A stretch of 64,000 nt of DNA, from contig JAGFJO010000006.1 of the NCBI GenBank assembly GCA_024102635.1, positions 45,909 to 109,908 of the forward strand, given 5' to 3'. Below are positions 21,955-63,863 of this stretch, piece by piece. The notes under the pieces are model-generated. The model was given only the letters and a program-made list of their open reading frames with translations, did not search any database and was not told where the DNA came from. Numbering within the stretch: position 1 is the stretch's first letter; every line of letters begins with the position of its first letter. This DNA comes from Deltaproteobacteria bacterium. GTDB taxonomy: Bacteria > Bdellovibrionota_C > UBA2361 > JAGFJO01. The position numbers and the translations under genes are program-made.

Positions 21955-21956
21955 AA

Positions 21957-25577: not shown

Positions 25578-25619
25578 ACTGAAAACAAATTCACTATAGT
25601 GAAAGATATGCGTCCAACT

Positions 25620-26432: not shown

Positions 26433-26461
26433 CAGCTATTCCGTCTTACTCCAATGATTCG

Positions 26462-32910: not shown

Positions 32911-34270
32911 TTCGGCGCTGTCACTGAATTCCATCAGCAAGTGTTACCGCTTATTTGCAAAGCCTCAGGACAGGCTTAAGCAGATGATATTCCGCGGACG
33001 CCGCACTTACTTCCGGGAATTTTGGGCGCTAAAGGATGTGTCTTTTGAGGTTGCACCCGGCGAATGCATTGGAATAGTAGGAAGAAACGGCGCCGGAAAG
33101 TCAACCTTACTGCAGATTATTACCGGCGTAATTCCGCCGACAAGCGGGTCAGTACGCGTAGCAGGCAAAGTGGCTGCCCTTCTTGAACTAGGCACCGGAT
33201 TCAATCCTGAATTCACCGGCCGCGAGAATGTGTTTCTAAATGGGTCTATACTCGGCTTCACTCAGGAGCAAGTCCGCGAGAAATACGACGACATAGCAAG
33301 CTTTGCTGATATAGGAGCATTCATCGATCAGCCTGTCAAAACCTATTCAAGCGGTATGATGGTGCGGCTCGCTTTTGCGGTCGCAGCTCACGTAGATCCG
33401 GATATCCTTATTATCGACGAAGCTCTATCGGTCGGAGACGCTAAGTTTCAGGCTAAGTGTTTCAGGAAGTTTCAAGAGTTTAGGGACAATAGGAAAACAA
33501 TTCTTTTTGTTACGCATGCTGTTGAACAGGTTATACGCCATTGTGACAGGGCGCTGTTAATAGAAGACGGCTCACTAATAACGCAGGGAGAGCCGAAACA
33601 GGTAGCTAATACCTACTTGAGCTTGCTCTTCGACACCAAGCCCATAGATAAGCAAGAGAGCCAGGTTGATGCAAAGCCTCAAGGGAGCGAGGTTAACGGC
33701 CTACGTGCCGGCTCCAACGGAAGCGCTTCTGCATCTCAGCTTGATTTGTTTCTCTCAGGAGCGGCTGGAGACGATAGCTTTCCAAGTCGCCCAGGATACA
33801 ACCGAGCGGAGTATCGCTGGGGGTCACGGGAGGCGGAACTTGTAGACTATATGCTGTGCAACGACAAACAGTGGCACATAAACCATTTCTCTTCCGAAGA
33901 CAGGATCACATTGTACCTAAAGGTGCGCTTCAACCGTAATGTGGCCAAACCGATATACGGCCTTACACTGAAAACACCTGATGGAGTTACGATCTACGGC
34001 TCTAACTCCCGGGATTCGGCGGGAGACCGAATTTTCAGGCACCAGAGCAGCGGGGCGGTGGCTGTAGTGAGCTTTTCCCTGCGAGCCGGCTTGACTTCAG
34101 GTCATTACTTTATATCGCTCGGTGTCGCAGAAGAGGTTAATGACGAGGCCCTGCCGCTCGACAGGCGCTATGACGTTCTGGAGATATACATCACTAATCC
34201 CCACAAAGTTTATGGAATTGCTGATTTAGGCCTGAAGTTTTGCGAAATTGAGAGCCTGTCCCCCGAATAA
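32900..34270 (+). CDS. wzt: polysaccharide ABC exporter ATP-binding protein with C-terminal glycan-terminus-binding-like domain (Wzt)
   Basis: Walker A GRNGAGKST, signature YSSGMMVRLAFA, Walker B LIIDEALSVGD. After a Ser/Gly linker there is a beta-rich C-terminal domain of about 150 aa. Start taken at MSSNSALS, overlapping the wzm stop. Confidence 0.8.
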   Translation: MSSNSALSLNSISKCYRLFAKPQDRLKQMIFRGRRTYFREFWALKDVSFEVAPGECIGIVGRNGAGKSTLLQIITGVIPPTSGSVRVAGKVAALLELGTGFNPEFTGRENVFLNGSILGFTQEQVREKYDDIASFADIGAFIDQPVKTYSSGMMVRLAFAVAAHVDPDILIIDEALSVGDAKFQAKCFRKFQEFRDNRKTILFVTHAVEQVIRHCDRALLIEDGSLITQGEPKQVANTYLSLLFDTKPIDKQESQVDAKPQGSEVNGLRAGSNGSASASQLDLFLSGAAGDDSFPSRPGYNRAEYRWGSREAELVDYMLCNDKQWHINHFSSEDRITLYLKVRFNRNVAKPIYGLTLKTPDGVTIYGSNSRDSAGDRIFRHQSSGAVAVVSFSLRAGLTSGHYFISLGVAEEVNDEALPLDRRYDVLEIYITNPHKVYGIADLGLKFCEIESLSPE

Positions 34271-41101: not shown

Positions 41102-41256
41102 GTTATTCCGTTCAATCTACCGGCGTTGAAGCGATCTATCAAGTTAGGAAACTGCCGATCTAACTCGGCAAGACCATCCATCGTGTCTCGCTCAGGGGCC
41201 GCGAGAAACACCTGTTCTTGTTTGACAAACGCCTTACCTCAGGCTACTGATTATGC

Positions 41257-42030
41257 ATGCCTGCCCCTAACGCTTCAAAGCACTTGCCATTAGTAAGCAT
41301 AATAGTAAGAACGGTCGACCGTCCCTACTACCTGCGCGAGTGCCTCACGAGTTTGCTCGTGCAGGACTACCCTAATATTGAAATCATCATCGTAAACGAC
41401 GGGGGAGAGAGCGTGAGTGCCCTGGTCGAGGAATTGGGCCTCCCGTTCCGGCACCAACTTATCGAGCTGAAGGAGAATCGAGGCCGATCGGAGTGTGGAA
41501 ATATCGGTCTTGATCATGCGAGCGGAAAGTACATCGGCTTTATCGATGATGATGACATCTTCTACTCTTTTCACATTTCGACCCTTGTATATAAGCTGAT
41601 CAACTCCAACTACAAGGTGGTCTATTCCGACGGACTGCAAGCCCGGCAGATAAAATGCCCATTCAACGATAAGATGTACTCGACGGTGGAACTTACCTTG
41701 GTGTTATCGGAAGAGTTCGACTTCCAGGATCTTCTTACGCGCAACTACATTCCGATTCTTTGCGCCCTTTTTGACCGATGCTGCATTGAAGAAGGCATTA
41801 GGTTCGACACCTCAATGGACGTACTGGAAGACTGGGATTTTTGGATACGTATAGCAAGGCACTACGACTTTGCCCATTTGAAGCAGATCACCTGTGAATA
41901 CCGCTATCGCTCCGACGGCTCGAATACGGTAGGCCAGCTGGATCATGTTTGGGAATGGTGCCGCAATCACATAAAACATAAGTATTCCATCTTAAGAAAG
42001 GGGCGGGTTAATATGGAGCTGGCAAGCTAG
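41257..42030 (+). CDS. glycosyltransferase family 2
   Basis: VSIIVRTVDRPYYLRECLTSLLVQDYPNIEIIIVNDGG and a DDD motif. Confidence 0.8.
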   Translation: MPAPNASKHLPLVSIIVRTVDRPYYLRECLTSLLVQDYPNIEIIIVNDGGESVSALVEELGLPFRHQLIELKENRGRSECGNIGLDHASGKYIGFIDDDDIFYSFHISTLVYKLINSNYKVVYSDGLQARQIKCPFNDKMYSTVELTLVLSEEFDFQDLLTRNYIPILCALFDRCCIEEGIRFDTSMDVLEDWDFWIRIARHYDFAHLKQITCEYRYRSDGSNTVGQLDHVWEWCRNHIKHKYSILRKGRVNMELAS

Positions 42031-42039
42031 GGAAGGACT

Positions 42040-42840
42040 ATGGGGGATGCTAAAGTTGCATTTGACTTCAACAAGATGACGGTCGAAGAGCAGGAAGCTG
42101 CTATTCAGAAGGTTGTTCAACTGCTTGCAGGTAAGTCGAGCGTTCTATGCATCGGAGCTTCCGCATTAAGGCTTGCCGAGACGCTGGCGGCCTACGAGTC
42201 GCGCCGAGTAACGTTACTCACTGACAACAGCGACTTCATATCCACCGATCAAAGCAGTTCGGTGCGTATCCTAGTTGAGCCGCTTGCTTCAGACAGCTTT
42301 CTATCACGCTTTACGCCCGATGAATTTGATGCGGTAGTGCTAACCGATCCTCCACTTAGCAGCAACACCGTCACCAGCAAGCTCCCGTCGCTACTGACCT
42401 TCTTCACCGGGGCATTGGTCGTATCTATTCCGGAGCTAATCACCGAGGAGCAGGCAATCATAAGAGAGCAGGCACTAGAGATTGAGAGACTTAAGAAGGT
42501 TCTGCGGGTGCGGGAGGAAACGATCTCTTGGTACTCGAAGCGCTTAAGGGAGCATCTAGTTAGTCATTACAAGCTTGAGGGCACACATGCAGAGCGCAAG
42601 CGCGAACATGAATTAAGCAGTGAACTTGAACGAAAGAACCAAGAGTACTCTGCGCTGCTCGCTGACCGCGATCGCATCAAGGACTATGCCGACCGGCTGT
42701 CGCGATATTCCGCCGATCATCTGCCTTTGATTCTGCGCTATCCTGTCAAGGCTCTCATTGCTCTGTGGGCATACGGCCCGCTAGAGCCGATTCGAATCAT
42801 CAGAAAAAAAAAATCTATAAAAAGCCAGCCCGGCAGTTAG
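42040..42840 (+). CDS. hypothetical protein: Rossmann-like N-terminal domain plus C-terminal coiled coil
   Basis: The N-terminus has degenerate MTase-like motifs (VLCIGASA; DAVVLTDPP). Residues ~140-235 are heptad-rich coiled coil. The last codons run through an A10 tract. Confidence 0.45.
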   Translation: MGDAKVAFDFNKMTVEEQEAAIQKVVQLLAGKSSVLCIGASALRLAETLAAYESRRVTLLTDNSDFISTDQSSSVRILVEPLASDSFLSRFTPDEFDAVVLTDPPLSSNTVTSKLPSLLTFFTGALVVSIPELITEEQAIIREQALEIERLKKVLRVREETISWYSKRLREHLVSHYKLEGTHAERKREHELSSELERKNQEYSALLADRDRIKDYADRLSRYSADHLPLILRYPVKALIALWAYGPLEPIRIIRKKKSIKSQPGS

Positions 42841-43784
42841 AAGAACATCCCGCCATAGAAGTTCTCACCCTGGCTTACAACTCCGAGCGCTTTATCGATG
42901 GCTATTTCTCAGCCTTTTCTCGAATTAACTACCCCTTTGAAAAGATAACAATTCGCATCCTGGATAATCACCCGGAGCACGCCTCGTTTAGGCTGATAGA
43001 AGATCGAATCGTTAGACCCGGAACATATCCTATACGCATTGTACTAGAAAAGTCCGAGCGTAATTTGGGTTTTACGGGAGGCAATAATCTGCTTATGGAG
43101 CGGGCGCTGAATGAAACCGATTCTCCATTCGTTTTCCTCCTTAATATGGATACTCGCATCGATCCGGAATGTCTTAGCGAACTGGTTCGCTTCATGCGTG
43201 AGGATAACTCTGCCGGCATGGTGGAGGCGCTACAAGAGCCGCGGGAACATCCTAAAGCCTATGATTTGCGGACATTCGAGACCCACTGGTGCTCCGGAGG
43301 GGGCGTACTAATTGATAGACGCGCTCTCGAGGAGGTCGGACTATTTGACGATCGCTTTTTTCTATACTGCGAGGATGTAGACTTAAGCTGGCGGATGTGG
43401 ATGAACGGGTGGAGGTGCAAGATAAATCCCAAGGCCAAATATGTGCACCTGACCGAGTCAGATGACACCGGCAAGGATCTCACTAATCAGCACTACTACA
43501 GTATGCGCAACTGCTTCTTTATGCACTACAAGTACGATTCCCGGCGTGGCATCAAATCTTTGGAAGCTCTGCTGCGGGAGACGCTTGCGAAAGAGCCCGA
43601 CCCCAAGCAGCGCGCCATATTTGAACGGGCATATAATGACGCCCGGCAGCGGCGGCTTAGCTTTTTCATGGATAAACTTAAGCTTTCTCTCCTTCCTCGC
43701 AGTCAATGGATGGTTTTTGAGGGCTTTTCGTTCGAAAAACGGCGTGCGTTTATTGATGAAGCGGATCGTCGTATTATACTATGA
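42765..43784 (+). CDS. glycosyltransferase family 2 (start uncertain; overlaps upstream ORF across an A10 tract)
   Basis: GT-A fold signatures: IEVLTLAYNSERFID, FLLNMDTRIDPE, and FFLYCEDVDLSWRMWMNGW as the DxD region. Confidence 0.75.
   Translation: MGIRPARADSNHQKKKIYKKPARQLEEHPAIEVLTLAYNSERFIDGYFSAFSRINYPFEKITIRILDNHPEHASFRLIEDRIVRPGTYPIRIVLEKSERNLGFTGGNNLLMERALNETDSPFVFLLNMDTRIDPECLSELVRFMREDNSAGMVEALQEPREHPKAYDLRTFETHWCSGGGVLIDRRALEEVGLFDDRFFLYCEDVDLSWRMWMNGWRCKINPKAKYVHLTESDDTGKDLTNQHYYSMRNCFFMHYKYDSRRGIKSLEALLRETLAKEPDPKQRAIFERAYNDARQRRLSFFMDKLKLSLLPRSQWMVFEGFSFEKRRAFIDEADRRIIL
42804..42813 (+). repeat. A10 homopolymer tract at the junction/overlap of two ORFs
   Basis: Read directly from the sequence. 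Inserting one A would fuse frame 42040 with frame 42765. Confidence 0.9.
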
Positions 43785-43814
43785 ACAGCTAAAGCAGCGA
43801 GTCTAAACACAGTC

Positions 43815-44738
43815 ATGTCAGCGGGGCCCACACTCAACCTTAATTCCTTTAACCATGACATGCACTATTCGGACGGCGAATCCGAACAGCGCCTGCTCGC
43901 CCATTTTAAGGAAGCTAAGAACCCCGAAGACATTCTTTCCCTTTTAACAGATAAGCCCGATTGGCCTACTCTCTATCACCTCTCACCTGAAAGAGAGAAC
44001 CTTCTATCTTGGTTCGATTTCAACTCCGACTGCGAGCTGCTCGAGATCGGCGCCGGCTGCGGAGCTTTAACGGGGCTATTTTGCAGGCGGGCGAGGAAAG
44101 TTACGGCCGTGGAGCTGACCCGTCTTCGCGCAGAGATAATACTTCAACGGTGCAAACACTACAGCAACCTCGAGATCATCGTAGGAGATTTCAACCAGAT
44201 AGAGTTCGAGCGGCCCTTTGACTATGTGACTTGCATAGGAGTGCTTGAATATGCCGGGCGTTACGGCAGATCTGCCAGACCTTACGATCACCTGCTTGCG
44301 CGGACCAGGTCACTGCTCAAGCCGGGGGGGTGCCTTATTCTTGCAATAGAGAATAAGTTCGGTCTGAAATACTGGTCCGGCTGCCGGGAAGATCATACGG
44401 GTCGAATGTTCGAATCCATCGAAGGCTATCCCGGCAGAGATGGCGTCCAGACTTTTGACAGGGGTGAGTTAGAGCGCATGCTCAACACGGCCGGATATTC
44501 CAATCTGCAATTCTACTACCCACTGCCCGACTACAAGCTGCCGGTCGAGATCTTTTCCGACGCCTATCTTCCCTCGCCCAGACACTCGGTCAGGCCTGGC
44601 TTGCTACCTACGCCCGATCCTTCCGGCGAAAGAGCTGAACTTTTCGATGAAGCGCTTGTAATGGATAGTATTATCGGAGCCGGGCAGTTCAGCTTCTTTG
44701 CAAACTCATTTCTTGTCTTTGCAAAGGCTGTCCCATGA
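43815..44738 (+). CDS. class I SAM-dependent methyltransferase
   Basis: Motif I LEIGAGCGALTG, motif II VTAVE, and post-I/III segments. 307 aa. Confidence 0.8.
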   Translation: MSAGPTLNLNSFNHDMHYSDGESEQRLLAHFKEAKNPEDILSLLTDKPDWPTLYHLSPERENLLSWFDFNSDCELLEIGAGCGALTGLFCRRARKVTAVELTRLRAEIILQRCKHYSNLEIIVGDFNQIEFERPFDYVTCIGVLEYAGRYGRSARPYDHLLARTRSLLKPGGCLILAIENKFGLKYWSGCREDHTGRMFESIEGYPGRDGVQTFDRGELERMLNTAGYSNLQFYYPLPDYKLPVEIFSDAYLPSPRHSVRPGLLPTPDPSGERAELFDEALVMDSIIGAGQFSFFANSFLVFAKAVP

Positions 44739-45925
44739 TAATCTATTCAAGATTCAACTCCCGGCGAAGACGGCGCTTTCAGCTGCGAACCAGTGTTGAA
44801 CTGCGAGGCGACACGCTGGTGGTAAGCAAACACGCCATGCAACCAGAAGCTGTGCCGTTTTTGCAGGAGATATTGCTTGCCTACAGCAAGTTGAGCGAGC
44901 TCAAATTGCCATTTGAAATCAATAAACCTTACCGCTCCGAAAAGAATCAGATAAGTTTTGATTACATTGATGCCGACTCACTGGAGTCGCTGTTAATTGG
45001 GTGTTTGAGGCGCAAGCAGAAAGACTCATTTCTTAATATGATAGCGCACTACTGCGAACAGGTACGTTCCTTCCCTCAAGTCCCGCAGCAGTCCGACCGG
45101 CATTTCAAGTCTGTATTTGGAGATCATCCTGCATCCGAATGCGACTGCCTCTCCATAGGATGCCTTGACATAAATTTCGACAATATTCTGGCAAAAGACG
45201 ACGGCTTTGTTCTTATAGACTACGAGTGGACTTTCCCTTTCCCGATACCGGCGGACTTTATAATTTTCCGCGCCATCCTAGGTTTTTACGGCAACAACAA
45301 AAGATTACGCCCAAATTCGCTGGTACCATTAGAAGAGGCATTAAGGCATGCCGCCATAGCACCAGAAAACTTCGAATCTTTTCTGCGGATGGAGAATCGA
45401 TTCCAACAATACGTCTATGACGATATTCCAAGCACCGATACTAACGGTACAAGTGCACTGAGTGAACTCGGCAAAGATCCGCCAACCGAAGGGCCGGCCA
45501 GCCGCCTCGTTGCCATGAACGCCTACCTTCTCTTCTTGGAGAAAGAGAACGCTCTTAAGCAATCTTGGATTATGAAGCTGGAAGACAGCATAAGGGCAAA
45601 GGACTCTTGGACCTCGAAGTTGGAGCAGGACAACTCCAACTTGCGGCACTCAACCGAGGAGCTCAGTAAGCAGCTAACCGAGATCAAGGCCGGACAAGCG
45701 GCTTTATCGCCGACCAAGGTGTACGACTCGCAGCTCCAACCAGTCAAAGATCGCCTAGCTACTCTTGAATCCGAGCTGCAGCGCAAAGACGAGCTTATAG
45801 AGGATTTAGAAAAGACCGTTCTGTCAAAAAGCGAATGGATTTCAAAACTGCAAGAAGAAGTTCTGAGTTTTACATCCTCTCTTCAAGAGCTTCGGCAGCA
45901 GATGGAAGAGTTAACCAAGCGTTAA
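44735..45925 (+). CDS. protein-kinase-like (PKL) fold protein with about 150-aa C-terminal coiled coil (WbdD kinase/ruler-like)
   Basis: Beta-3 Lys context LVVSKH and a catalytic-loop-like CLDINFDNIL (HxDxxxxN pattern with C in place of H). The metal-binding IDYEW resembles the DFG/ChoK IDxE. Then a long heptad-rich C-terminus. Its ATG overlaps the TGA of the methyltransferase (ATGA). Confidence 0.55.
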   Translation: MIIYSRFNSRRRRRFQLRTSVELRGDTLVVSKHAMQPEAVPFLQEILLAYSKLSELKLPFEINKPYRSEKNQISFDYIDADSLESLLIGCLRRKQKDSFLNMIAHYCEQVRSFPQVPQQSDRHFKSVFGDHPASECDCLSIGCLDINFDNILAKDDGFVLIDYEWTFPFPIPADFIIFRAILGFYGNNKRLRPNSLVPLEEALRHAAIAPENFESFLRMENRFQQYVYDDIPSTDTNGTSALSELGKDPPTEGPASRLVAMNAYLLFLEKENALKQSWIMKLEDSIRAKDSWTSKLEQDNSNLRHSTEELSKQLTEIKAGQAALSPTKVYDSQLQPVKDRLATLESELQRKDELIEDLEKTVLSKSEWISKLQEEVLSFTSSLQELRQQMEELTKR

Positions 45926-45990
45926 CCCAGAACCTTTGTGAGTAGCGTAATGGCCCGCGATGGCTCCTTTGATATCCAGAGAGGGAGAAT

Positions 45991-47064
45991 ATGCGAATAG
46001 CATTTGCTCCATCCTCAATGCTACAGGTCTCTCCACAATCGCTCGAGAGCCGCCCTTTGGGCGGAATGGAAACGGCTCTTCTCCGGCTCTCGGAAGCCAT
46101 AGGCCAGGCCGGTCATGAGGTGATCCTCTTAACAGAAGAGCGCAACCCCCGCCTCACCGAACCGCTCCTACTGCCATATACTATGGTGGACCGATTAGGG
46201 GAACTTGATGCTGTCATTAGCGTGCGTGAATGGACTCCGCTTCTGTTGCCCTTTCAGAGCAAGCTCCGTCTTTTCTGGACCGGTGATTCATACGACCTGG
46301 CTCAAAATATAGGGATCGGAGACGCGCGGGTGATTAATAAAATTGATCACTTGCTATGTGTAAGCAATTGGCACGCGCATACCTTGAGCAGCCACTCAGG
46401 CTTTCCTGCTGAAAAGATCTATATACTTCGGAACGGCTTACATCTTCCCTATTTTGAAGGTAGCGAGACACGCCTCAGGAAACGGCTAATCTACTCTTCA
46501 ACGCCCTATAGGGGGCTCAATCTGCTTAAAGATATATACAGTGATCTAGTAAAGAACCATTCTGACCTGGAGCTGCATGTATTCTCAGGCTATCAAGTGT
46601 ACTCGCAGAATGAAAAGAATGACTTTCATCCAAAGCTCGTTCGGGAATTTGAGGCACTTTCAAGGGAAATGAGCCAACTACCCGGATGCGTAATGCACGG
46701 CAATGTAATTCAGAAAGCACTGGCGAGAGAGATGATGCGCTCGAGCATATTGGCGTATCCAAACACCTTCGAGGAAACCAGCTGCATAACGGCTATGGAA
46801 GCTCAGGCAGCAGGCTGCGTGGTTGTGACTTCCGAGCTAGGAGCGCTCCCGGAAACAGTAGGTGACCGCGGCGTGATAGTTAAAGGGAAGCCCGGCTCTC
46901 CCGAATACATGCAGGAATTCAAGTCGCAGCTGAACCGGCTGCTGACGGATGACGGCGCCTGGAACGCCCTTTCATCCGCCTCGTTAGCAGCCGCTAAGCA
47001 GTTTTCATGGAAAGCGATAGCCGAAGAATTTATTAAATTCATCGGCCATAAAGTGGGCGCCTAA
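45991..47064 (+). CDS. glycosyltransferase family 4 (GT-B, retaining)
   Basis: C-terminal EETSCITAMEAQAAGCVVVTSELGALPE (EX7E-type) motif. Confidence 0.85.
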   Translation: MRIAFAPSSMLQVSPQSLESRPLGGMETALLRLSEAIGQAGHEVILLTEERNPRLTEPLLLPYTMVDRLGELDAVISVREWTPLLLPFQSKLRLFWTGDSYDLAQNIGIGDARVINKIDHLLCVSNWHAHTLSSHSGFPAEKIYILRNGLHLPYFEGSETRLRKRLIYSSTPYRGLNLLKDIYSDLVKNHSDLELHVFSGYQVYSQNEKNDFHPKLVREFEALSREMSQLPGCVMHGNVIQKALAREMMRSSILAYPNTFEETSCITAMEAQAAGCVVVTSELGALPETVGDRGVIVKGKPGSPEYMQEFKSQLNRLLTDDGAWNALSSASLAAAKQFSWKAIAEEFIKFIGHKVGA

Positions 47065-47136: not shown

Positions 47137-48237
47137 CTACCAGGTCAGTGAAGCGGCCGTCTGATACTCAGTCACGCGCGTCTCAAAAAAGTTCTTCTCT
47201 TTCCCAAGGTCGATCGTTTCGCTCATCCAGGGGAACGGATTCTTCGAGCCGTACTGGCTCTTTAGTCCGATCCTCTCAAGCCGGCGGTCCGCAATATATT
47301 GAACATAATCTCTGAACATCGGCGCTGATAATCCGAGTATCCCGCGCGGCAAACAGTCTACGGCATAGTTGTACTCCAGCTCGACAGCCTGTCTGATACG
47401 ATCCACCATCTGCTGCTGAAACTCCGGCGTCCAGACCTCCGGGCTCTCTTCCTTTATACCGTTGATCAGATCAATTCCGAAGTTAAGATGAATGGTTTCA
47501 TCCCGCAGAATATACTGGAACTGTTCCCCGATGCCGGTCATCTTGTTCTGGCGGTGGAACGAAAGGATCATCACGAAGCCGCTATAGAAGAAGATGCCCT
47601 CCATAATGACGTAAAAGCCTATCAAGTTCTCGAGGAACTTCTGCTTGCCTTCGAAGGTATCGGTGGAGAACTCCGGACGAATAACGTCCGCGGTCAGCTC
47701 CATTTCGAACTTGTCTTTATCGTGAATTGAATTCACCTCGTTGTACATGTTGAAGACCTCCTGCTGATCAAGCGAGAGGGACTCAACTATGTAGTGGAAG
47801 GTATGGGTATGAACTGCCTCCTCGAAAGCCTGCCTTAACAAATACTGGCGCGCTTCCGGGTTGGTTACGTGCTTGAATATCGCAAGTACGATATTGTTCC
47901 CGACCAAACTCTCGGCAGTGCTGAAAAACCCAAGATTGCGCATGATAACACGGCGCTCATCCGCGCTAAGCCTGTCGGACTTCCAAAGCTCTATATCTTT
48001 GCCCATTGGCACTTCAGTCGGCAGCCAGTTGTTTGCGCAGCCGTTAAGGTAATGCTCCCATGCCCACTTATATTTAAGCGGCATTAGCTGGTTTACATCC
48101 ACGGTTTGGCAGTTAATCAACCGCTTGTCGCTCTGGTTGACGCGGCCCTTTCTACCTATCAGATCGGATGAGTTCTCTTGCTCATCGCTGTTTGAACCAT
48201 CGGCTTTCCCCCCGGGGATATCATCAAAATTAAGCAT
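47137..48237 (-). CDS. nrdB: ribonucleotide reductase class Ia beta subunit
   Basis: Ferritin-like di-iron ligands (EEAVHTH ..., [18 protein letters not shown]) and a C-terminal acidic tail for R1 binding. Confidence 0.9.
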
Positions 48238-48268
48238 CTCGACCTCCTAAAAAAACATAAATACTCGG

Positions 48269-51200
48269 TTATTGGCAGCTCTCGCAATCTCCGTCCAGAT
48301 TGCAAACTGCCTTAGGTACAGCAATGGCACGGTTTTCAGCGCCGGCGGATTCTCCGCCGGCCGGCGCATCACCGGAACGAGGCTCTTCACCCTCGGACTG
48401 CCGATCCACCTTGATGTTGCTGGATGCCGACTTACTCTTCATCCAGCGCGGCTGCAACCCGCGGCGGTTGATATCGGTGGTGGATTTCTCGATCTGAGTT
48501 GCTCCTAGCGACCGCAGATAGTAGGTAGTCTTAAGTCCCTTGCGCCAGGCATGCAGATACATGTCGTGGAGTTTTTTCCCGCTCGGCTCAGCGATATAGA
48601 GATTAAGCGATTGACCCATATCTATCCACTTCTGACGTCTCGAAGCGCACTCAATCAACCACTCGGGCTCAATCTCGAATGCGGTGAGGTAAATGCGCTT
48701 AAGGTCATCCGGAATTCGCTCAATCTCCATAATGGAGCCATCAAAATACTTCAGATCATCCACCATCTCATGATCCCAAAGTCCGAGCGCTTTCAAGTCA
48801 TTCACCAGGTACACGTTGTACACGATGAATTCACCGGACAGGTTCGATTTGGCGTATAGGTGCTTGTACGCGGGCTCAATCGACTGAGTGATTCCGGTAA
48901 TGTTGGAGATCGTCGCCGTAGGCGCGATAGCCATCGTATTGCTGTTCCGCATGCCGTTCTGACGCACGGCCTTACGTAGCGTCTCCCAATCTAGAGTCGA
49001 ACTTCGATCTACATCTACGTCACCTCCACGCTGCTCCTCCAGCAGTGCGATGGTGTCAATCGGCAGAAGGCCCCGGTCCCACTTCGATCCTTTATAGGTC
49101 GAGTAAGTTCCTTTTTCCTTAGCCAAGTCGCTGGAAGCCAAGATGGCATGGTAGGAGATGAGCTCCATACTCTGATCGGCGAAGTTAACCGCTTCAGGGC
49201 TGGCATAGCTCAAGCGCTGCTCGTAAAGAGCGTCCTGGAATCCCATTACTCCCAGCCCGATTGGGCGGTGTCGCAGGTTGGCATTACGCGCTTCAGGCGT
49301 CGGATAAAAGTTAATATCAATAACGTTGTCCAACATTCTCACCGCGGTCCTTACGGTCGCTGCAAGCAGCTTTGCATCAAGCTTACCGTCCTTTATATGG
49401 GCCGGAAGATTAATAGAGCCGAGATTGCAAACTGCGGTCTCCTCTTTGGAGGTATTCAGCAAAATCTCGGTGCAAAGATTCGAGCTGTGCACCACACCGA
49501 CATGATCCTGCGGCGAGCGGATGTTTGAAGGATCCTTGAAAGTCATCCAAGGATGTCCAGTTTCATAGAGCATGCTGAGCATTTTTCGCCAAATCCCCAT
49601 CGCCTCGACTCTCTTGAAAAGCTTGATCTCCCCCTGGTCAACCATCTTTTCATATTCCTCGTAGCGCTTTTCGAATGCCGTACCGTAAAGATCATGGAGA
49701 TCGGGCACATCGCTCGGGCTAAACAATGTCCATTGTCCATTTGATGCTACGCGCTTCATGAACAGGTCTGGGATCCAATTCGCGGTGTTCATGTCGTGGG
49801 TTCGCCGGCGCTCATCGCCTGTGTTCTTCCGAAGCTCAAGAAAATCCTCGATATCCAGATGCCAGGTCTCGATATAGGCGCACATCGCCCCTTTGCGCTT
49901 GCCGCCCTGGTTAACTGCCACAGCGGTATCGTTAGCAACCTTAAGGAAAGGAATCACCCCCTGACTACGTCCGTTTGTACCCTTAATGCGAGCACCGGTG
50001 GCACGTACATTCGTCCAGTCGTTCCCGAGTCCGCCGGCCCATTTGGATAGCTGAGCGTCATCCGAGATGACCTTAAAGATATGCTGCAGATCGTCCATTA
50101 CGGTGGAAAGATAGCAGCTGCTCAGCTGCGGGTGCATCGTTCCGGCATTGAATAAGGTAGGAGTACTCGAGACAAATCTGAACTGAGAAAGAACGTTATA
50201 GAACTCAACCGCTCTCTGGTTTTTCTGTTCCCCTTCGAGAACGCTCAATCCCATTGCGACCCGCATCCAAAATATCTGCGGAGTTTCAAGGCGGATATCG
50301 TTACTGTGAATGAGATAACGATCGTACAGAGTTTGCAAACCGAGATATGCGAAATTCAGGTCTCGCTTAAGATCCAACGCCTGAGAAAGAAAATCGAGAT
50401 CGAATTCCAGCAGCTTGGGGTCAAGGCGCTCGAGCGAGATCGCCTTGCTTAGATAGCTCTTGAAATATTTGCGGTGCTCCTCTTCCAGTTTTGGGTTGTG
50501 CGCGTCGATGCCGAAAGCCTCACGATAAATCACATCTAGCAGCAACCCGGAGGCGACATAGGAGTAAGCCGGCTCCTTCTCTATTTTGGATCGCGCGGCC
50601 ATAATATTGGCCTGATCGATCTCTTCTGCTTTGATGCCGTCATAGAAGTTGCGAAGAGATTCCTGCAGCACCTCTTCGCTTGAAACCAAACCCTGCTGCT
50701 CAAATTCTTTGCAGGCAAAGGATATGCGGGTGCGAAGATCGCCCTCCGATATAGTAGCCGCGCTGCCATCCCGGCGAGTTACCGAGTAGCGGACCTCAAC
50801 CTTCTCTTCCTGCTCTTTCTCTCCGGTAATCTGAGGTGCAGGCCGGACCTCTTCGGCGGCTGGCTGGGTACGAAGGGCGCTGCGCTGAGCGCGATAAATA
50901 ATAAAATCCTTGGCAACTTGATAGAAGCCTTCCGCCATCATTTGACGCTCAACTTCGTCCTGAATAAGTTCAATCTCTATTGTCGCGCCGCTCTTGGCCC
51001 GCTCAACCGCTTTGGAGACGACTTTATTCGTAAGAAGATTTACTGCGTTAATGATCTCCTGGGGTGAAGGCCCGTCGACTTTGAGCGAAGCGCGGAAAGC
51101 GCGCTCAATCGCCGATGCGATCTTCATTGGGTTGAAACGCACAAAAGTCTTGCCGTCACGGCGCAAGACCTTAAGATTGCGAGGGGAATCGTCTCTTAGC

Positions 51201-51637
51201 TGCTTATGCTCGTCTCTGTAAATTATATAGTTTCTGGCAACCTCGTAGTGACCGCTTTGCATCAGCTTTACTTCAACAAGGTCCTGAATTCCCTCGACGG
51301 TCAGCGCAGCACCCTGCATGGCTTGCTTGCTTAGTTCGTCCGCTACAAGCGCCGTAACCTCCTGAACGGTACTGTAAATCTCTTGAGGAAGTGGAGATGT
51401 TATCGCGATGCTGTTTGTGGCGCGAAAGGCCGCTTCGATGGCAGAGAATATTCTATCGCGCCGGAAGGGCACCAGCATCCCGTTGCGCTTCACAACCGCT
51501 ATCGTGGTGGGCGGCGATTTCGACGGACGCTCAAGGTCCACATTTTTTGCGGACCCATTTTCCTTGGCCTGCTGTGATGTGAGGCCACCGTTTAATCCAT
51601 TATTGGTTGAAGATTCGTTCGATCCGATGCTTTCCAT
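48269..51637 (-). CDS. nrdA: ribonucleotide reductase class Ia alpha subunit with three N-terminal ATP-cone domains
   Basis: Three VxKRDG-type cone starts ([34 protein letters not shown]). Catalytic-core motifs are present. The C-terminal [11 protein letters not shown] is the redox Cys pair. Confidence 0.95.
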
Positions 51638-57782: not shown

Positions 57783-57938
57783 ATGCAAGATTTACTGCTA
57801 TTTTTAGCCGTGGCCTTAGCCGCCGCATACCTGCTTTATAGGGCGCGCCGCTCTCTCAGCGGAAAGGGCGGTTGCAACTCATGCAGCCGCTCTCCTGCGA
57901 ACCAGCATCTCATAAACGAAATAAAAAAGAGAAAATGA
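57783..57938 (+). CDS. small membrane protein (TM helix plus GGCxxCS), resembling FeoB-associated Cys-rich membrane protein family
   Basis: 51 aa: MQDLLLFLAVALAAAYLLYRARRSLSGKGGCNSCSRSPANQHLINEIKKRK. Its TGA stop overlaps the queF ATG (aaaATGAgt). It is below the length cutoff of the ORF track. Confidence 0.45.
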   Translation: MQDLLLFLAVALAAAYLLYRARRSLSGKGGCNSCSRSPANQHLINEIKKRK

Positions 57939-58759
57939 GTCTCGACGACCTTCAGCTCGGAAAGCATGTAGACTATCCAACTGAATATGATGCCGGGCTC
58001 CTGCGCGCGATTCCTCGAAAGCGCCCTACAAAGGGTGGAAGCGGTGCGCCCGGCGGTTTTGACCTATGGCGCTGTTACGAGCTTTCTTGGATCGCTCCCA
58101 ATAACCTTCCTGTTAGCGGCGTGGCGGAGATTACCTATGAGAGCTCCACTCCTAATATCGTGGAGTCCAAAAGCCTCAAACTGTTCTTGGGAAGCATGAA
58201 CGGGAAGACCTTTGCAGAATCCGGCGAAGTAACTCGAGAGATTAGCTGCCGCCTGGCGGAAACGGTAGAGGCAAAGGATGTAAAGGTTAGAGTTTTGTCT
58301 CCAGGTCAATGGGGCCTGCTGCTACCTGCGCCGATAGATGGAACATGCCTTGACGAAGCTGATGCGAAAGGCGGCATACTTTCGGAGGATGGTTTACCAG
58401 AGGAGGCTTTCGCTTCAGAACGGAGCGAAGAGACTCTTTACACTAACTGCTTCCGGGCGCTATGCCCGGTAACTCGCCAGCCTGACTGGGCTACCGTCGA
58501 GATCTCCTACCGCGGCCCCAAAATTCGCCGCGAAGCACTGCTGCGCTATCTCATCTCATTCCGGAGTCAGAAGTGCTTTCACGAAGATTGTTGTGAGCGC
58601 ATTTTTGAGCAGCTGCACAAAAGAAAGGATGGCACGACACGAATGGACGAGCTCAAAGTGATCTGCCACTTCATGCGGCGCGGCGGAATTGATCTTACTC
58701 CCGTACGTTTCACTGAGGGCTATAAAACAAGCGGGATTATCCGCACACTGCGACAGTAG
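57935..58759 (+). CDS. queF: NADPH-dependent 7-cyano-7-deazaguanine reductase (bimodular type II)
   Basis: LGKHVDYPTEYDAGLL N-terminus and the catalytic-Cys context CPVTRQPDWATVEISY. Start taken at MSLDDL rather than the track start at 57872. Confidence 0.85.
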   Translation: MSLDDLQLGKHVDYPTEYDAGLLRAIPRKRPTKGGSGAPGGFDLWRCYELSWIAPNNLPVSGVAEITYESSTPNIVESKSLKLFLGSMNGKTFAESGEVTREISCRLAETVEAKDVKVRVLSPGQWGLLLPAPIDGTCLDEADAKGGILSEDGLPEEAFASERSEETLYTNCFRALCPVTRQPDWATVEISYRGPKIRREALLRYLISFRSQKCFHEDCCERIFEQLHKRKDGTTRMDELKVICHFMRRGGIDLTPVRFTEGYKTSGIIRTLRQ

Positions 58760-58763
58760 AATT

Positions 58764-59423
58764 ATGAAAACCGTGGTCTGCTTCTCAGGAGGAATGGATT
58801 CTACAGTGCTTTTATACCACCTGATTGCGGGCGGACACTCCGTTAAGGCGATCTCTGTTGATTACGGCCAGCGGCACAGGAAGGAGCTTGAGTCGGCCAA
58901 ATCCATCTCGCAGAGTCTGAAGATAGACCATCGCATCCTTGATCTTGCCGGTGTGGGAACACTGCTCAAAGGAAGCGCCCTCACGGACAGGTCTGTCACC
59001 GTTCCGCGCGCGGAATACGACGAGCAAAGCCTTAAGGTGACTGTGGTCCCTAATCGCAATATGATCTTTCTCTCGATTGCGGCATCATGGGCTCTCAGCT
59101 CGGGCTGGGACAGTATTGCGATCGCCTCTCACGGCGGAGATCGCGCATTGTATCCCGATTGCCGCAGCGAGTTCCTTGACGCAATGCGGAAGGCCTTGAA
59201 CTTATCCGACTGGAATAATTTGGAGCTGCTGTCGCCATTCACAGGCCTAAGCAAAGCCGAGATCTGCAAACTGGGGAGTGAGCTTGGCGTGCCGTTCGAA
59301 AAAACCTGGAGCTGTTATGAAGGGGGGCCAGCTCACTGCGGGAGCTGCGGCACTTGCCGGGAGCGCCGAAGCGCTTTCAAGGAATGCGGATTATTGGATC
59401 CGGCCCCCTACCACAAGATGTAG
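58764..59423 (+). CDS. queC: 7-cyano-7-deazaguanine synthase
   Basis: PP-loop VVCFSGGMDSTV. C-terminal zinc site CxxC/CGSCGTC. Start at MKTVVCFSGG. Confidence 0.9.
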   Translation: MKTVVCFSGGMDSTVLLYHLIAGGHSVKAISVDYGQRHRKELESAKSISQSLKIDHRILDLAGVGTLLKGSALTDRSVTVPRAEYDEQSLKVTVVPNRNMIFLSIAASWALSSGWDSIAIASHGGDRALYPDCRSEFLDAMRKALNLSDWNNLELLSPFTGLSKAEICKLGSELGVPFEKTWSCYEGGPAHCGSCGTCRERRSAFKECGLLDPAPYHKM

Positions 59424-59472
59424 CTTCGCTGGAGTAATATAGGCATAAGTGATAGACTTTTGCGCTTAACGG

Positions 59473-60165
59473 GTGATATTCGTTGCTTTTCTTATGAGCG
59501 CAAATCGTTCGGTGCGCCTGGCGCACAACATTATAGATCGACCGAAGCTGGACCTCCCCGCTGCGGGCCAGTTTGCAATTAACGAAATCTTCTGTTCCCT
59601 GCAAGGAGAAGGTGCGCAAGCCGGGCGCGCTATGGTTTTCCTCAGATTTTCTCAGTGTAATTTGCGATGCTCCGTCAGTAACTCCGGGTTCGACTGTGAC
59701 ACCGACTTTTCTGGGAAGCGCGTCATGACTCAGTCGCAGATTTTCAGTGAGCTTTCAGCCATGAAGCTTCAAACCGATTGGCTACTGCTAACCGGCGGCG
59801 AACCGGCGCTTCAAGTGACACCTGATTTCCTTGGCGCCTTGAAAAACGCAGGATGGAAGATTGCTATCGAAACAAACGGGACTATAAGGCTGCCGGAGGG
59901 TTTCGACTGGATAACACTTTCACCAAAAAGCGCAGAACACACCATTAGGCAGCGGCACGCCGATGAAGTGAAATATGTATTAAGCGAAGGCATGTCACTT
60001 CCTCGACCGAGCATTGCCGCGAAACATTATTTTGTATCTCCCGCCTTTCAGCCGGACGGCACCCTGCGCAGAGAGGACCTGGAGTGGTGCATAAATCTCG
60101 TAAAACAGGCGCCGGACAAATGGAGACTCTCGATTCAGCTTCACAAATTGATCGGAATCCGGTAG
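59473..60165 (+). CDS. queE: 7-carboxy-7-deazaguanine synthase (radical SAM)
   Basis: INEIFCSLQGEGAQAGRAMVFLRFSQCNLRC, the QueE CxxxCxxC-variant cluster motif. Start uncertain. Confidence 0.85.
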   Translation: MIFVAFLMSANRSVRLAHNIIDRPKLDLPAAGQFAINEIFCSLQGEGAQAGRAMVFLRFSQCNLRCSVSNSGFDCDTDFSGKRVMTQSQIFSELSAMKLQTDWLLLTGGEPALQVTPDFLGALKNAGWKIAIETNGTIRLPEGFDWITLSPKSAEHTIRQRHADEVKYVLSEGMSLPRPSIAAKHYFVSPAFQPDGTLRREDLEWCINLVKQAPDKWRLSIQLHKLIGIR

Positions 60166-60860
60166 CTCACGCACCTAAGCCTTGTATCAGCAAGCCGGCG
60201 GCAATAGTCCGAAAGGCTCTGCGAGCAGCGATTCTGATTGTCGCCGTCGATATTGCGCTTACGGCGCTTTACCTTCCGTTCTCTGCCTATCTCATCTCGG
60301 CTCATAAACTAAGTGGCACCGTAGATGCAGCGCTAATATTCTTCGGCGAAAGCGGGCCTTATGAAGGTCTATCAGCGGACACCTTGCGGGTTGTCGAGCA
60401 TGCAGCGCAGCTGTATCACCAAAAGAAGGTGCGCCATGCTGCCTGCCTGGGGGGTGGAAAGCTGCCGGGCCCGGTTAGCGGGGCGCAATTAATGTGCCGA
60501 GCGTTAGCCGCTCGCAGCGTTCCAGCTGAAGCGTTAAAGGTGGATAAAGGCTCTTGGGATACCATAACTAATATGAACGAAGCGCGGCAGCTGATGAATG
60601 TCCACGGATGGACGAGCGCTGCACTCGTCAGCTCGCCCTATCACCTGCCTAGAATATTGTATCTTGCAAATAATCCGAAATGGGCTTTCAGCACTGCACC
60701 GCCCCATTCTCCACTTTCTATTAAGCTCTCCACTTTGCTAAGGAGGTGGCGCGAGGTGAATCATGAATTTGCTGCATGGGGCGCAATGGCGCTGCTGCCG
60801 CGCGGCTGGTATGAAGCAGCTATCGCTTGGTACAGGGATAGAGGGCTGAATATCATTTAG
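60084..60860 (+). CDS. DUF218 (YdcF/SanA/ElyC-like) domain protein
   Basis: N-terminal TM, then ALIFFGESGPYEGLSADTLRVVEHAAQLY ... LGGGK, typical of DUF218. The 5' end overlaps the queE 3' end. There is no in-frame ATG after the queE stop, so the start is uncertain. Confidence 0.55.
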   Translation: MVHKSRKTGAGQMETLDSASQIDRNPVAHAPKPCISKPAAIVRKALRAAILIVAVDIALTALYLPFSAYLISAHKLSGTVDAALIFFGESGPYEGLSADTLRVVEHAAQLYHQKKVRHAACLGGGKLPGPVSGAQLMCRALAARSVPAEALKVDKGSWDTITNMNEARQLMNVHGWTSAALVSSPYHLPRILYLANNPKWAFSTAPPHSPLSIKLSTLLRRWREVNHEFAAWGAMALLPRGWYEAAIAWYRDRGLNII

Positions 60861-61126: not shown

Positions 61127-62263
61127 ATGAAAGTTCCACTACTTGACTTAAAAGCTCAACTGACTCCGCTTGAAAACGAGATTAAACAGGCCGTAATGGA
61201 GGTGATCGACTCGACCCATTACATTATGGGCCCTAAGGTTGAAGAACTCGAGAAGAAGGTGGCCGAATACAGCGAAGTTAAGGAAGGCATCGGGGTCTCT
61301 TCTGGTACTGATGCTCTTCTGGTGGCGCTAATGGCCCTGGACGTAAAGCACGGCGACATTGTAATTACCACTCCCTATTCGTTCTTCGCCTCGGCCGGAG
61401 TGATAGCTAGATTGGGAGCCACTCCCGTATTCGTCGATATCCTCCCGGACACATACAACATCGACCCGTCCGCACTCCAGGCATGGTTCGAAAAGGAAAA
61501 AGAGCTACGAGCAAAGGTAAAGGCGATAATCCCCGTCCACCTGTATGGACAGACCGCCGAAATGGATCCGATTTTGGAGGTGGCAGAAAAATACAACGTT
61601 CCGGTCATCGAAGATGCAGCGCAAGCGATCGGCGCCACCTATCCGTCAAAAAGCGGCACAAAGAAGGCCGGAAGCATGGGGCTTATGGGATGTTTCTCAT
61701 TCTTTCCCAGCAAAAATTTGGGGGGCGTGGGTGACGGCGGAATGGTAGTAACTAATGACGGTGAGCTGGCGGAGAAGCTCCGCAAGCTTAGAAACCACGG
61801 GGCCAAGCCGAAGTATTATCATGCAATGATCGGCGGAAACTTTAGGCTAGATCCGATTCAGGCCGCCGTACTGCTTGTAAAGCTGCCGCATCTTGAGAGC
61901 TGGCATATGCAACGCAGGGAAAACGCTCACAGATACGATGAGCTGATTTTATCTCCGAAGGTTAAAAAGCCGGTGTCGCGTTACGGACGGCAGCACCACA
62001 TATTCAACCAATATGTTTTGAGCGTTGACGATCGTAGAGATGAATTCCGTCAGTTCTTAACCAGTAATAATATCGGTAACGAGGTCTACTACCCGGTCTC
62101 CTTTCATGAGCAGGAGTGCTTCAAGTATCTCGGATATGCTAAGGGCAGCTTTCCAAACAGCGAGCATGCCGCGCGTCATACCATAGCGCTTCCAATATAT
62201 CCGGAACTGACGCGCGAAATGCAGGAATATGTTGCAGGAAAGGTGAAGGAGTTCTATGGATAA
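61127..62263 (+). CDS. DegT/DnrJ/EryC1/StrS family sugar aminotransferase (WbpE-like)
   Basis: [11 protein letters not shown] start, PLP-Lys region [15 protein letters not shown], and a conserved C-terminal fold. Confidence 0.85.
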
Positions 62264-63863
62264 AAAAATATGCGTAGTCGGCGTAGGCCGTTGGGGTAAA
62301 AATCACGTTCGAACTCTCGCCGATCTCGGCGCGCTAGCCGGAATAGTTGACACCAACACCGATTCAATCAAGTGGTTTAAGGAGAAGTACCCCGGTGTTC
62401 AAACATTTGCTTCTTTAGATGAAGCTTTGCAGGCGCCAATTGATGGATTTACCGTCGCGACCCCCGGAGAGACGCATTTCGCTATTGCAAAGAAAATTTT
62501 GCAAGCAGGAAAACCGGCGCTGGTGGAGAAACCGCTGACGCTTGAACTTTCACAATCCCGCGAGCTACGAGACCTGGCGAAAAGCAAGAACTTAACGCTG
62601 ATGGTCGGCCATGTGATGCTCTTCCATCCCGCTATCAGAAAGATTCGGGAATTAATCAAGTCGGGCAAGATCGGCAAATTGCAGTATCTCTACAGCAACC
62701 GCCTTAACTTGGGAACGGTCCGTACTGAAGAGAATATTTTGCTGAGCTTGGCCCCGCATGACATCTCTATATTCCAGTATATAATCGGCGATGAACCGCT
62801 CGAGGTCATCTCGCAAGGCGGAGCGTTCGTTCAGCCGCACATACATGACTCAACCCTTACTATCCTCAAGTATCCCAACAATGTCGTTGCTCACATTTTC
62901 GTGAGCTGGCTGCATCCCTTTAAAGAGCAGCGTCTCGTGGTGATAGGCTCCAAGGGAATGCTTTCCTTTGAGGACTCCACCAAAGAGAAGAACATCCTCT
63001 TTTATGAAAAGGGAGTGGACTGGGTGAACGGTGAGCCCGTTAGCCGCGATGGCACAACAGATATCATTCCTTACGATAAAGAGATGCCTCTCACGGAGGA
63101 GATGCGCTACTTTATTAATAATTTAGACAGCGGGAGCGCTGAGATCGCCGGGCCCGATAGCGCTGTAGAGACAATGGAGATACTGGCGCGAGCATCCAAG
63201 AGCCTGCTTCATTCAGGCGAGAGATCGCTTAATAACGTGTCATCTCCTGCAGCTAGCAGGGAGTTTTTTGTTCATCCAACGAGTATAATAGATAACGACG
63301 TTGCTATAGGCTCAGGCACAAAGATATGGCATTTTTCCCATATCCAGCCGAACGTCTCGATAGGCTCCAACTGCTCTCTTGGGCAGAACGTTAACGTTGG
63401 AAATAACGTTAAGATCGGCAACCACGTGAAGATTCAGAATAATGTCTCCATTTATGAAGGAGTCGAGCTCGAGGACTATGTCTTTTGCGGCCCCTCCATG
63501 GTTTTTACCAATATTCTTAACCCGAGAAGCAAATATCCTCAGCGCGGCGCAAAATTTTACAAGCGCACGCTGGTGCGGGAAGGCGCCTCCATAGGGGCGA
63601 ACGCGACCATCGTGTGCGGCACAACTATAGGGAGGCACGCATTCATAGCTGCCGGCGCCGTAATTACCAAGGATGTTCCCGACTATGCGCTGATGGCAGG
63701 CGTTCCGGCCAAACAGAAGGGATGGATGTGCGAATGCGGCGAGTCGCTAAGTCTGAATTCGGATAATGCAAAATGCTCGAAGTGCTCAAGGAACTATCTG
63801 CTCAAAAACGGTGCTCTAGAAGAAAAGAGCCCGTCCGCCCATGAGTCGGGCAAGGCAGCTTAG
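62256..63863 (+). CDS. tri-domain fusion: Gfo/Idh/MocA oxidoreductase + left-handed beta-helix (hexapeptide) N-acetyltransferase + C-terminal zinc ribbon
   Basis: N-terminal [13 protein letters not shown] Rossmann and an EKPL catalytic region. Residues ~350-480 are hexapeptide repeats ([49 protein letters not shown]). It ends with CECGES...CSKCS. It overlaps degT by 8 nt. Confidence 0.8.

Follow-up and report, generated by a model that had tools for sequence, protein, structure and literature searches.

What does it mean that a single gene joins a sugar dehydrogenase to a sugar N-acetyltransferase, directly behind a gene for a sugar aminotransferase? The question is raised by a gene on contig JAGFJO010000006.1 of Deltaproteobacteria bacterium, a metagenome-assembled genome (MAG), within a stretch of 64,000 nucleotides that was analyzed at its full length and that we call the window. 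The first-pass annotation had described the product as a WbpB-like oxidoreductase fused to a WbpD-like hexapeptide N-acetyltransferase with a terminal zinc ribbon. We found that the fusion is real, natural and very widespread, and that it belongs to ordinary sugar-nucleotide biosynthesis rather than to a new kind of system. With a probability of roughly 0.7, this bifunctional enzyme and the coupled DegT aminotransferase turn a UDP-N-acetylhexosamine into its 3-acetamido derivative. The features of the locus are given below in window coordinates. Conservation was assessed on an alignment of 47 relatives with 61-74% identity (A1), from which a structure model of the monomer was built (mean predicted local distance difference test score, pLDDT, of 74.7; predicted template modeling score, pTM, of 0.69).

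61127..62263, forward strand: DegT/DnrJ/EryC1-family aminotransferase dependent on pyridoxal 5'-phosphate (PLP), 378 amino acids (aa); Pfam DegT_DnrJ_EryC1, 377 bits
62246..62263, forward strand: translational-coupling junction with Shine-Dalgarno sequence, fusion ATG and aminotransferase TAA; sequence read directly
62256..63863, forward strand: whole fusion gene, 535 codons plus stop; identical protein P0001 in NCBI nr
62256..63215, forward strand: dehydrogenase half, residues 1-320; Pfam, NCBIfam NF040723, GnnA 7bvj, Foldseek
63216..63266, forward strand: inter-domain linker, about residues 321-337; no consensus in A1, pLDDT <50 at residues 322-334
63267..63713, forward strand: left-handed beta-helix acetyltransferase domain, residues 338-486, WlbB/WbpD-like; Hexapep, WlbB 3mqg
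63714..63824, forward strand: C-terminal Cys4 tail, residues 487-523 (C492, C494, C507, C510); WlbB tail alignment, A1, model

The open reading frame (ORF) of the fusion starts with the ATG at 62256-62258 and contains no internal stop in the ORF list. The protein begins with a Gfo/Idh/MocA dehydrogenase, which a variable linker connects to a left-handed beta-helix acetyltransferase; a CxC...CxxC tail completes it. The TAA stop of the DegT gene lies at 62261-62263, so that the two genes overlap by 8 nt, and the Shine-Dalgarno sequence AAGGAG at 62246-62251 is located 4 nt 5' of the fusion ATG. Direct reading of the junction (AAGGAG-TTCT-ATGGATAA) bears out the overlap that had been proposed, and the identical spacing of -7 (8-nt overlap) occurs in a relative from the Dadabacteria (locus L009). 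These observations support translational coupling of the fusion to a C-3-type sugar aminotransferase. The GC-content of the fusion and aminotransferase genes (0.50) matches that of the window (0.51), and nothing therefore flags either gene as foreign.

A join of this kind could be an artefact of assembly or gene calling, i.e., two adjacent genes connected by a missed stop or a frameshift in a MAG, and the first-pass annotation had pointed to the region near residue 330 as the place where such a mis-join would show. The origin of the sequence from a MAG and the poor conservation of the inter-domain linker would both agree with this explanation, but the frame is continuous and the same architecture recurs in independent assemblies. 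Among the matches listed, 120 relatives of 519-568 aa are colinear and all carry both sets of domains; apart from the self-match P0001, their identity is 61-75%. In addition, we recovered an uninterrupted fusion ORF at 67 of 81 non-redundant loci (66 ORFs of 510-565 aa and a 902-aa triple fusion at locus L080), while the other 14 loci, mostly on short contigs, yielded no complete ORF. The relatives and loci together refute the artefact. The linker differs among relatives in both sequence and length, and its lack of consensus in A1 and its disorder in the model fit a genuine inter-domain linker.

In a scan with one genome for each species, at least 598 species-level genomes, drawn from more than 15 phyla, encoded a relative of the fusion; the top 80 of these stretches almost all cover both halves, and the shorter matches lie at contig ends. 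The carriers belong to Planctomycetota, Dadabacteria, Desulfobacterota/Thermodesulfobacteriota, Marinimicrobia, Sumerlaeia, Bacteroidota, Ignavibacteria, Acidobacteriota, Nitrospirota, Patescibacteria/Saccharibacteria, Chloroflexota, Omnitrophota, Gemmatimonadota, Armatimonadota, KSB1, Calditrichota, Lentisphaerota and Aminicenantes, as well as to one archaeon, a member of the Methanobacteriota. The fusion is thus neither rare nor surprising, and it is abundant in public databases, where it was annotated automatically with one half named per source. Our literature searches found no published description of this dehydrogenase-acetyltransferase fusion. In a neighbor-joining tree of the acetyltransferase domain (124 tips), fused and stand-alone forms are interleaved with at least 15 changes of state, although this tree is crude (189 columns, many fragmentary metagenome proteins) and unfit for counting events. 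Given these interleaved forms and the variable gene order around DegT, the architecture looks evolutionarily labile, as is typical of operon neighbors.

We then asked what each half most resembles. The dehydrogenase half consists of a Gfo/Idh/MocA Rossmann domain followed by an alpha/beta domain, modeled with a pLDDT mostly above 90. Pfam searches confirm the expected family well above the curated cut-offs for GFO_IDH_MocA (PF01408; residues 4-119; 76.5 bits against a cut-off of 24), and the second domain, GFO_IDH_MocA_C3 (PF22725; residues 127-236; 63.2 bits), also scores above its curated cut-off. The motifs of this half are G9xG11xxG14, D32, E91-K92-P93 and H168-D169; GxGxxG, E91-K92-P93 and H168-D169 are invariant in A1 and align with their counterparts in GnnA. 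By the usual rule for Rossmann folds, the acidic residue D32 suggests a preference for NAD+ over NADP+.

The WbpB-like identity that had been assigned to this half was not retained. The top solved relative by sequence is GnnA (7bvj; 102 bits over both domains, residues 5-289), whereas WlbA of Bordetella pertussis (3q2k) ranks 36th with 39.8 bits, confined to the NAD domain (residues 6-145). A Foldseek search of the PDB gave the same picture: GnnA ranks first with a target-normalized template modeling (TM) score of 0.86-0.90, and WlbA ranks 40th with a TM score of 0.75. The PDB title of the first-ranking entry is 'UDP-N-acetylglucosamine 3-dehydrogenase GnnA from Acidithiobacillus ferrooxidans', and 7bvj was identified as GnnA in a preprint independently of this title. 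The top NCBIfam model is that of an archaeal UDP-N-acetylglucosamine (UDP-GlcNAc) 3-dehydrogenase (NF040723), which aligns over its full length with 147.8 bits. The type enzyme behind this model is presumably MMP0352 of Methanococcus maripaludis, a protein that has been used as a UDP-GlcNAc dehydrogenase. On these similarities, we predict that the dehydrogenase half is an NAD+-dependent UDP-GlcNAc 3-dehydrogenase that would catalyze the first step.

The acetyltransferase half, in contrast to the dehydrogenase, kept the WbpD-like identity first proposed for it. Pfam detects Hexapep with 76 bits (cut-off 27) and Hexapep_2 with 36.7 bits, and the top solved relative is WlbB of Bordetella petrii (3mqg; 222 bits). 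Queried with the whole protein, residues 339-520 align with residues 6-188 of WlbB (E-value of 1e-64). A phmmer match of this half to WlbB has an E-value of 7e-66, and BLASTP aligns the two end to end, C-terminal tail included, at 55% identity (102/184; E-value of 8e-76). Other sugar N-acetyltransferases match more weakly: 7s43 (124 bits), the WxcM-like 4mzu (118 bits) and QdtC (57 bits). The domain is thus a predicted acetyl-CoA-dependent 3-N-acetyltransferase for the third step. The confidence of the model is low at residues 412-471, in the beta-helix region.

The similarity to GnnA also brings up a GnnA/GnnB-type route to lipid A, in which UDP-GlcNAc3N would supply a 2,3-diamino-2,3-dideoxyglucose backbone and the beta-helix would be an LpxA-like acyltransferase. 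GnnA is indeed the nearest solved structure to the dehydrogenase half, and LpxA and LpxD models of NCBIfam produce weak hits to the beta-helix; those hits, however, reach only 58-65 bits, far under their cut-offs, and solved LpxA chains score about 36 bits, with no stretch significant alone, against 222 bits for WlbB. The neighboring genes are of the O-antigen/capsule type and not lpx genes. Moreover, the fusion occurs in Patescibacteria/Saccharibacteria, Dehalococcoidia and a Methanobacteriota archaeon, lineages that to our knowledge lack lipid A, and this distribution counts against a role in lipid A synthesis. We regard this route as disfavored and very improbable.

The enzyme encoded upstream of the fusion supplies the step between the two halves. 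Its best matches among solved structures are sugar C-3 aminotransferases, namely 7b0d (313 bits), QdtB (277 bits), 2oga (251 bits) and WbpE (241 bits), and we favor the ATG at 61127 over the TTG at 61106 as its start; the resulting N-terminus agrees with its homologs. This DegT protein, a PLP enzyme of fold type I, is predicted to carry out step two, the 3-transamination of a UDP-3-keto sugar. The association extends beyond the window: among the 56 loci with at least 1.5 kb of flank on each side of the fusion gene, a DegT gene adjoins it immediately on the same strand at 28 (12 upstream and 16 downstream), and lies within 6 kb at a further seven. The exact arrangement of the window is found in the Dadabacteria locus L009, whose DegT protein is 69% identical.

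The three activities are also linked within single polypeptides. Protein P0227 (892 aa) has the order GFO-Hexapep-DegT, P0234 (910 aa) has the order DegT-GFO-Hexapep, and a 902-aa ORF of a Thermodesulfobacteriota MAG (L080:8001-10709) encodes GFO-Hexapep(Cys4)-DegT; two further proteins (P0161 and P0195) combine Hexapep with DegT. The triple fusions, which occur in both orders, bind the three activities into one pathway, and these longer fusions provide, as Rosetta-stone evidence, the strongest support for the idea that dehydrogenation, transamination and N-acetylation are performed by sequential enzymes. One additional protein, P0218, joins an acetyltransferase to a formyltransferase. At four Planctomycetota loci (L003 and L006, both Phycisphaerales, L005 and L008) the fusion gene is solitary and its neighbors are unrelated: for 8-10 kb around it there is neither a DegT gene nor a polysaccharide gene.

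From these assignments, the following route can be proposed. The dehydrogenase domain would oxidize a UDP-sugar, most likely UDP-GlcNAc, with NAD+ to the labile UDP-3-keto-GlcNAc. The separate PLP-dependent DegT enzyme would then convert the keto sugar to UDP-GlcNAc3N with L-glutamate as amino donor, and the WlbB-like domain would use acetyl-CoA to form UDP-2,3-diacetamido-2,3-dideoxy-glucose (UDP-GlcNAc3NAc). This reaction order follows that of the Wbp pathway, WbpA-B-E-D-I (PMC4031482, PMC10622841). The near-irreversible acetylation would pull the unfavorable oxidation at C-3 forward. By setting a 1:1 ratio, the fusion would keep the producer of the unstable, disfavored intermediate and the enzyme that renders the pathway irreversible at the same level, and these first and last catalysts would share one oligomeric scaffold. 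The product would enter surface-glycan assembly, and some lineages may then oxidize it to a uronic acid, epimerize it at C-2 or amidate it. Gfo/Idh/MocA enzymes are dimers or tetramers as a rule. Beta-helix acetyltransferases are trimers with active sites between subunits, as described for the related VioB (PMC9271549). The substrate channeling that the first-pass annotation suggested is hypothetical. In the monomer model the linker between the two domains is disordered, and each domain is expected to form oligomers.

The identity of the substrate deserves separate consideration. The nearest characterized relatives of the dehydrogenase half, GnnA and MMP0352-type enzymes, point to UDP-GlcNAc rather than to the uronic acid UDP-GlcNAcA, and UDP-GlcNAc3NAc is therefore the probable product. 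A number of observations weigh against this substrate or against the proposed function as a whole. Two of them favor a true WbpB-WbpD fusion, which would oxidize UDP-GlcNAcA, regenerate NAD+ with 2-oxoglutarate as in WbpB/WlbA, and acetylate the 3-amino uronic acid UDP-GlcNAc3NA to UDP-GlcNAc3NAcA: WlbB, the nearest characterized relative of the acetyltransferase half at 55% identity, acts on UDP-GlcNAc3NA, and JGI names relatives of the fusion UDP-2-acetamido-3-amino-2,3-dideoxy-glucuronate N-acetyltransferase. Genes for UDP-sugar 6-dehydrogenases and 2-epimerases near the fusion (at 7/81 and 12/81 loci, respectively) add to the case for the uronic acid. The NF040723 score lies far under the 450-bit equivalog cut-off, which makes the dehydrogenase half a relative and not an equivalog-level member, and the identity of this half to GnnA is a mere 25-33% or so. 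The DegT gene is absent within 6 kb at 21/56 loci, notably in Planctomycetota, such that the partner is hard to recognize in some cases; the dispersed pathway genes of Porphyromonas gingivalis offer a precedent (PMC4031482). The window ends 137 nt past the fusion gene, before its downstream neighbors, and the putative binding of zinc is read from the four invariant cysteines.

Against the uronic acid stand the poor match of the dehydrogenase to WlbA—by sequence, where it covers the NAD domain alone, and by fold—relative to GnnA, and the content of the 64-kb window, which holds no homolog of a UDP-sugar 6-dehydrogenase or 2-epimerase. WbpB and WlbA hold NAD(H) tightly and recycle it with 2-oxoglutarate. 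A 6-dehydrogenase gene near the fusion fits oxidation after acetylation equally well, as has been proposed for the archaeal route. We consequently view a fusion acting on the uronic acid as unlikely, although clearly less so than a role in lipid A, and we retain UDP-GlcNAc as the substrate that we infer for the fusion.

The C-terminal tail of the fusion was examined as a possible metal site. It carries the motif GWMC(492)EC(494)...(507)SKC(510), i.e., C492-x-C494...C507-x-x-C510, and W490 as well as all four cysteines are invariant in 47/47 relatives of A1. Among the 67 complete fusion ORFs, which derive from species-representative genomes, 58 present the Cys4 motif, three more present a CxC...CxC variant (L037, L051 and L056) and five present a degenerate, WlbB-like tail (L013, L016, L020, L024 and L082). 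This conservation is far above chance. The tail aligns residue for residue with residues ~155-188 of WlbB (GWMSRHGEQLDLPLRGNAEATCPHTGERYILTDG), where the positions of the four cysteines are occupied by S, H, C and T. Because it aligns with the C-terminal tail of WlbB itself, the tail is not an add-on domain but the Cys-bearing state of a C-terminal element found across the WlbB family.

We searched the acetyltransferase half against 1.84 billion cluster representatives and obtained 891 matches at E-values of at most 1e-30, of which the best 150 are a mixture of stand-alone proteins (~190-250 aa) and fusions. Where the tail was covered in these 150, the pattern [WYF]xCxC...CxxC was found in 17/32 stand-alone proteins, in 19/26 full fusions and in 2/4 proteins with an N-terminal acetyltransferase and another domain. 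The first-pass description of the zinc ribbon as unusual for this type of enzyme is therefore wrong at the level of the family. As to the zinc ribbon itself, modeled beta strands do lie around both conserved cysteine pairs (485-491, 504-506, 513-517 and 520-523, with a block-mean pLDDT of about 81-86 over residues 491-520), but the tail matches no curated zinc-ribbon family of Pfam: the sole hit, A2L_zn_ribbon, has an E-value of 0.16 and scores 12.2 bits where the cut-off is 22.9. The Cys4 tail is most simply read as a putative structural metal site, and such a site would steady the C-terminal hairpins of the acetyltransferase. It would constitute an undescribed, conserved Cys4 variant of the WlbB/WbpD family, whose sole crystallized member, WlbB, has the degenerate form.

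We further analyzed the genes that surround the fusion, with neighbor counts taken from the 81 non-redundant loci and synteny compared with 84 related loci. The recurrent neighbors are polysaccharide genes: CapD/Polysacc_synt_2 (16 loci), UDP-GlcNAc 2-epimerase (12), NAD-epimerase (12), Wzz/GNVR (11), UDP-sugar 6-dehydrogenase (7), Asn-synthase-type amidotransferase (7), Bac_transf (4) and glycosyltransferases; a cluster of 395-aa proteins present in eight loci was read as a glycosyltransferase without a domain scan. CapD and Bac_transf homologs, like those of the 6-dehydrogenase and 2-epimerase, are missing from the window, which contains the following glycan genes:

32122-34270: Wzm/Wzt glycan exporter of the ATP-binding cassette type, with Wzt_C domain
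38450-41101, minus strand: YfhO-like membrane protein of the GT-C glycosyltransferase class
41257-47064: two family 2 glycosyltransferase (GT2) genes, a methyltransferase gene and a GT1/GT4 gene

Two ORFs of this cluster (42040-42840 and 44735-45925) have no Pfam match. Among the closest relatives of the fusion protein, L001 (74% identity) has two YfhO genes and a GT2 gene beside the fusion, and L009 encodes a 48.5% homolog of the window GT2 at 41257-42030. Given these homologous YfhO and GT2 genes beside the fusion in L001 and L009, the glycan cluster of the window (38450-47064 and 32122-34270) may use the product of the fusion. A DPMS/GtrB-like GT2 (5mlz, E-value of 2e-12) is encoded directly downstream of the fusion in L007 (4803-5750) and L009 (9606-10559) and nearby in L083 (2088-3035), and a GT2 of this type also accompanies the fusion in L001 (5015-6115); these GT2 proteins have hydrophobic C-terminal segments. 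The position of a DPMS-related GT2 beside the fusion suggests a transfer of the sugar to a polyprenyl phosphate carrier, and we speculate that the sub-clade of the window uses its diacetamido sugar through a polyprenyl-phosphate/GT-C route.

An elaboration of this idea would place the fusion at the core of a multi-enzyme assembly: a beta-helix trimer with three dimerizing dehydrogenase domains, a Cys4 ribbon that docks the DegT dimer and channels the 3-keto intermediate, and a GT2 that loads UDP-GlcNAc3NAc on polyprenyl phosphate for use outside the membrane by a YfhO-type GT-C enzyme. We consider this scenario improbable. If it were true, YfhO-type surface glycosylation in uncultured Deltaproteobacteria and Dadabacteria would draw on a new donor sugar.

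The genes immediately upstream of the fusion are unrelated to it. They comprise queF, queC, queE-like radical-SAM and DUF218 genes and ORFs for a 592-aa antiporter-like protein and a 696-aa FeoB-like protein, both named from the sequence without a domain scan. The synteny of the window (FeoB, NhaP, queF/C/E, DUF218) is shared by none of the 84 related loci, and we therefore treat these genes as unrelated housekeeping neighbors. The queuosine-precursor set and the DUF218 gene that follows it span 57872-60860, with a two-domain queF (QueF_N and QueF), queC and a short queE-like gene whose Radical_SAM score of 23.4 bits falls under the cut-off of 29.5. When the first start codon is called, queF and queC overlap by 71 nt and the queE-like and DUF218 genes by 82 nt, so that translation probably begins at codons further downstream. 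On the minus strand, 47137-51637 encodes the beta and alpha subunits of a class I ribonucleotide reductase, of which the alpha subunit (1122 aa) has two ATP-cone stretches detected by Pfam. Also on the minus strand, 21298-29482 corresponds to an aromatic amino acid/tryptophan operon with a DAHP-synthase-family gene, a TrpB-like PALP enzyme, TrpD and TrpE.

The main value of these results lies in annotation. The NCBI label ('MAG: Gfo/Idh/MocA family oxidoreductase [Deltaproteobacteria bacterium]' for P0001) and the JGI glucuronate N-acetyltransferase name each miss one half of the protein, and the JGI name probably gives the wrong substrate as well. Read as a compact module leading from UDP-GlcNAc to a UDP-2,3-diacetamido sugar, the fusion and the triple fusions would be a marker for surface glycans with diacetamido sugars in many uncultured phyla, and could serve as a convenient catalyst of one or two polypeptides for the enzymatic synthesis of such sugars. 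The fusion opens no new biological question.

Compared with known systems, each domain of the fusion is a member or a close relative of a characterized family, and the chemistry at C-3 is known from Pseudomonas and Bordetella, and from Methanococcus. The acetyltransferase half resembles WlbB of B. petrii (3MQG/3MQH) and WbpD of P. aeruginosa, both UDP-GlcNAc3NA 3-N-acetyltransferases, in its beta-helix fold, its C-terminal GW...hairpin tail and its predicted chemistry, the acetyl-CoA-dependent N-acetylation of a 3-amino group. It differs from these enzymes in that it follows a dehydrogenase and may act on the non-oxidized UDP-GlcNAc3N, and from WlbB in the four invariant cysteines of its tail. 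The dehydrogenase half shares GxGxxG, EKP and HD motifs with the UDP-GlcNAc 3-dehydrogenases GnnA of A. ferrooxidans (7BVJ) and MMP0352 of M. maripaludis, but both of these are stand-alone proteins, and GnnA feeds lipid A without subsequent N-acetylation. The WbpB/WlbA-WbpE-WbpD pathway to UDP-ManNAc3NAcA in P. aeruginosa and Bordetella likewise oxidizes, transaminates and acetylates at C-3, with the same superfamily at each step (PMC4031482, PMC10622841); unlike the proposed module, it relies on three separate polypeptides, on a uronic acid made first by WbpA and on a different subgroup of Gfo/Idh/MocA dehydrogenases. Finally, a related beta-helix N-acetyltransferase (118-120 bits) is also fused to an enzyme of its own pathway in the bifunctional ketoisomerase/N-acetyltransferase FdtD/WxcM-like of Shewanella denitrificans (4MZU), a type of enzyme named in the reference list of PMC9271549 (reference 26). 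The partner in FdtD is a C-terminal cupin ketoisomerase that serves dTDP-linked 6-deoxy sugars, whereas the partner in the fusion described here is an N-terminal dehydrogenase.

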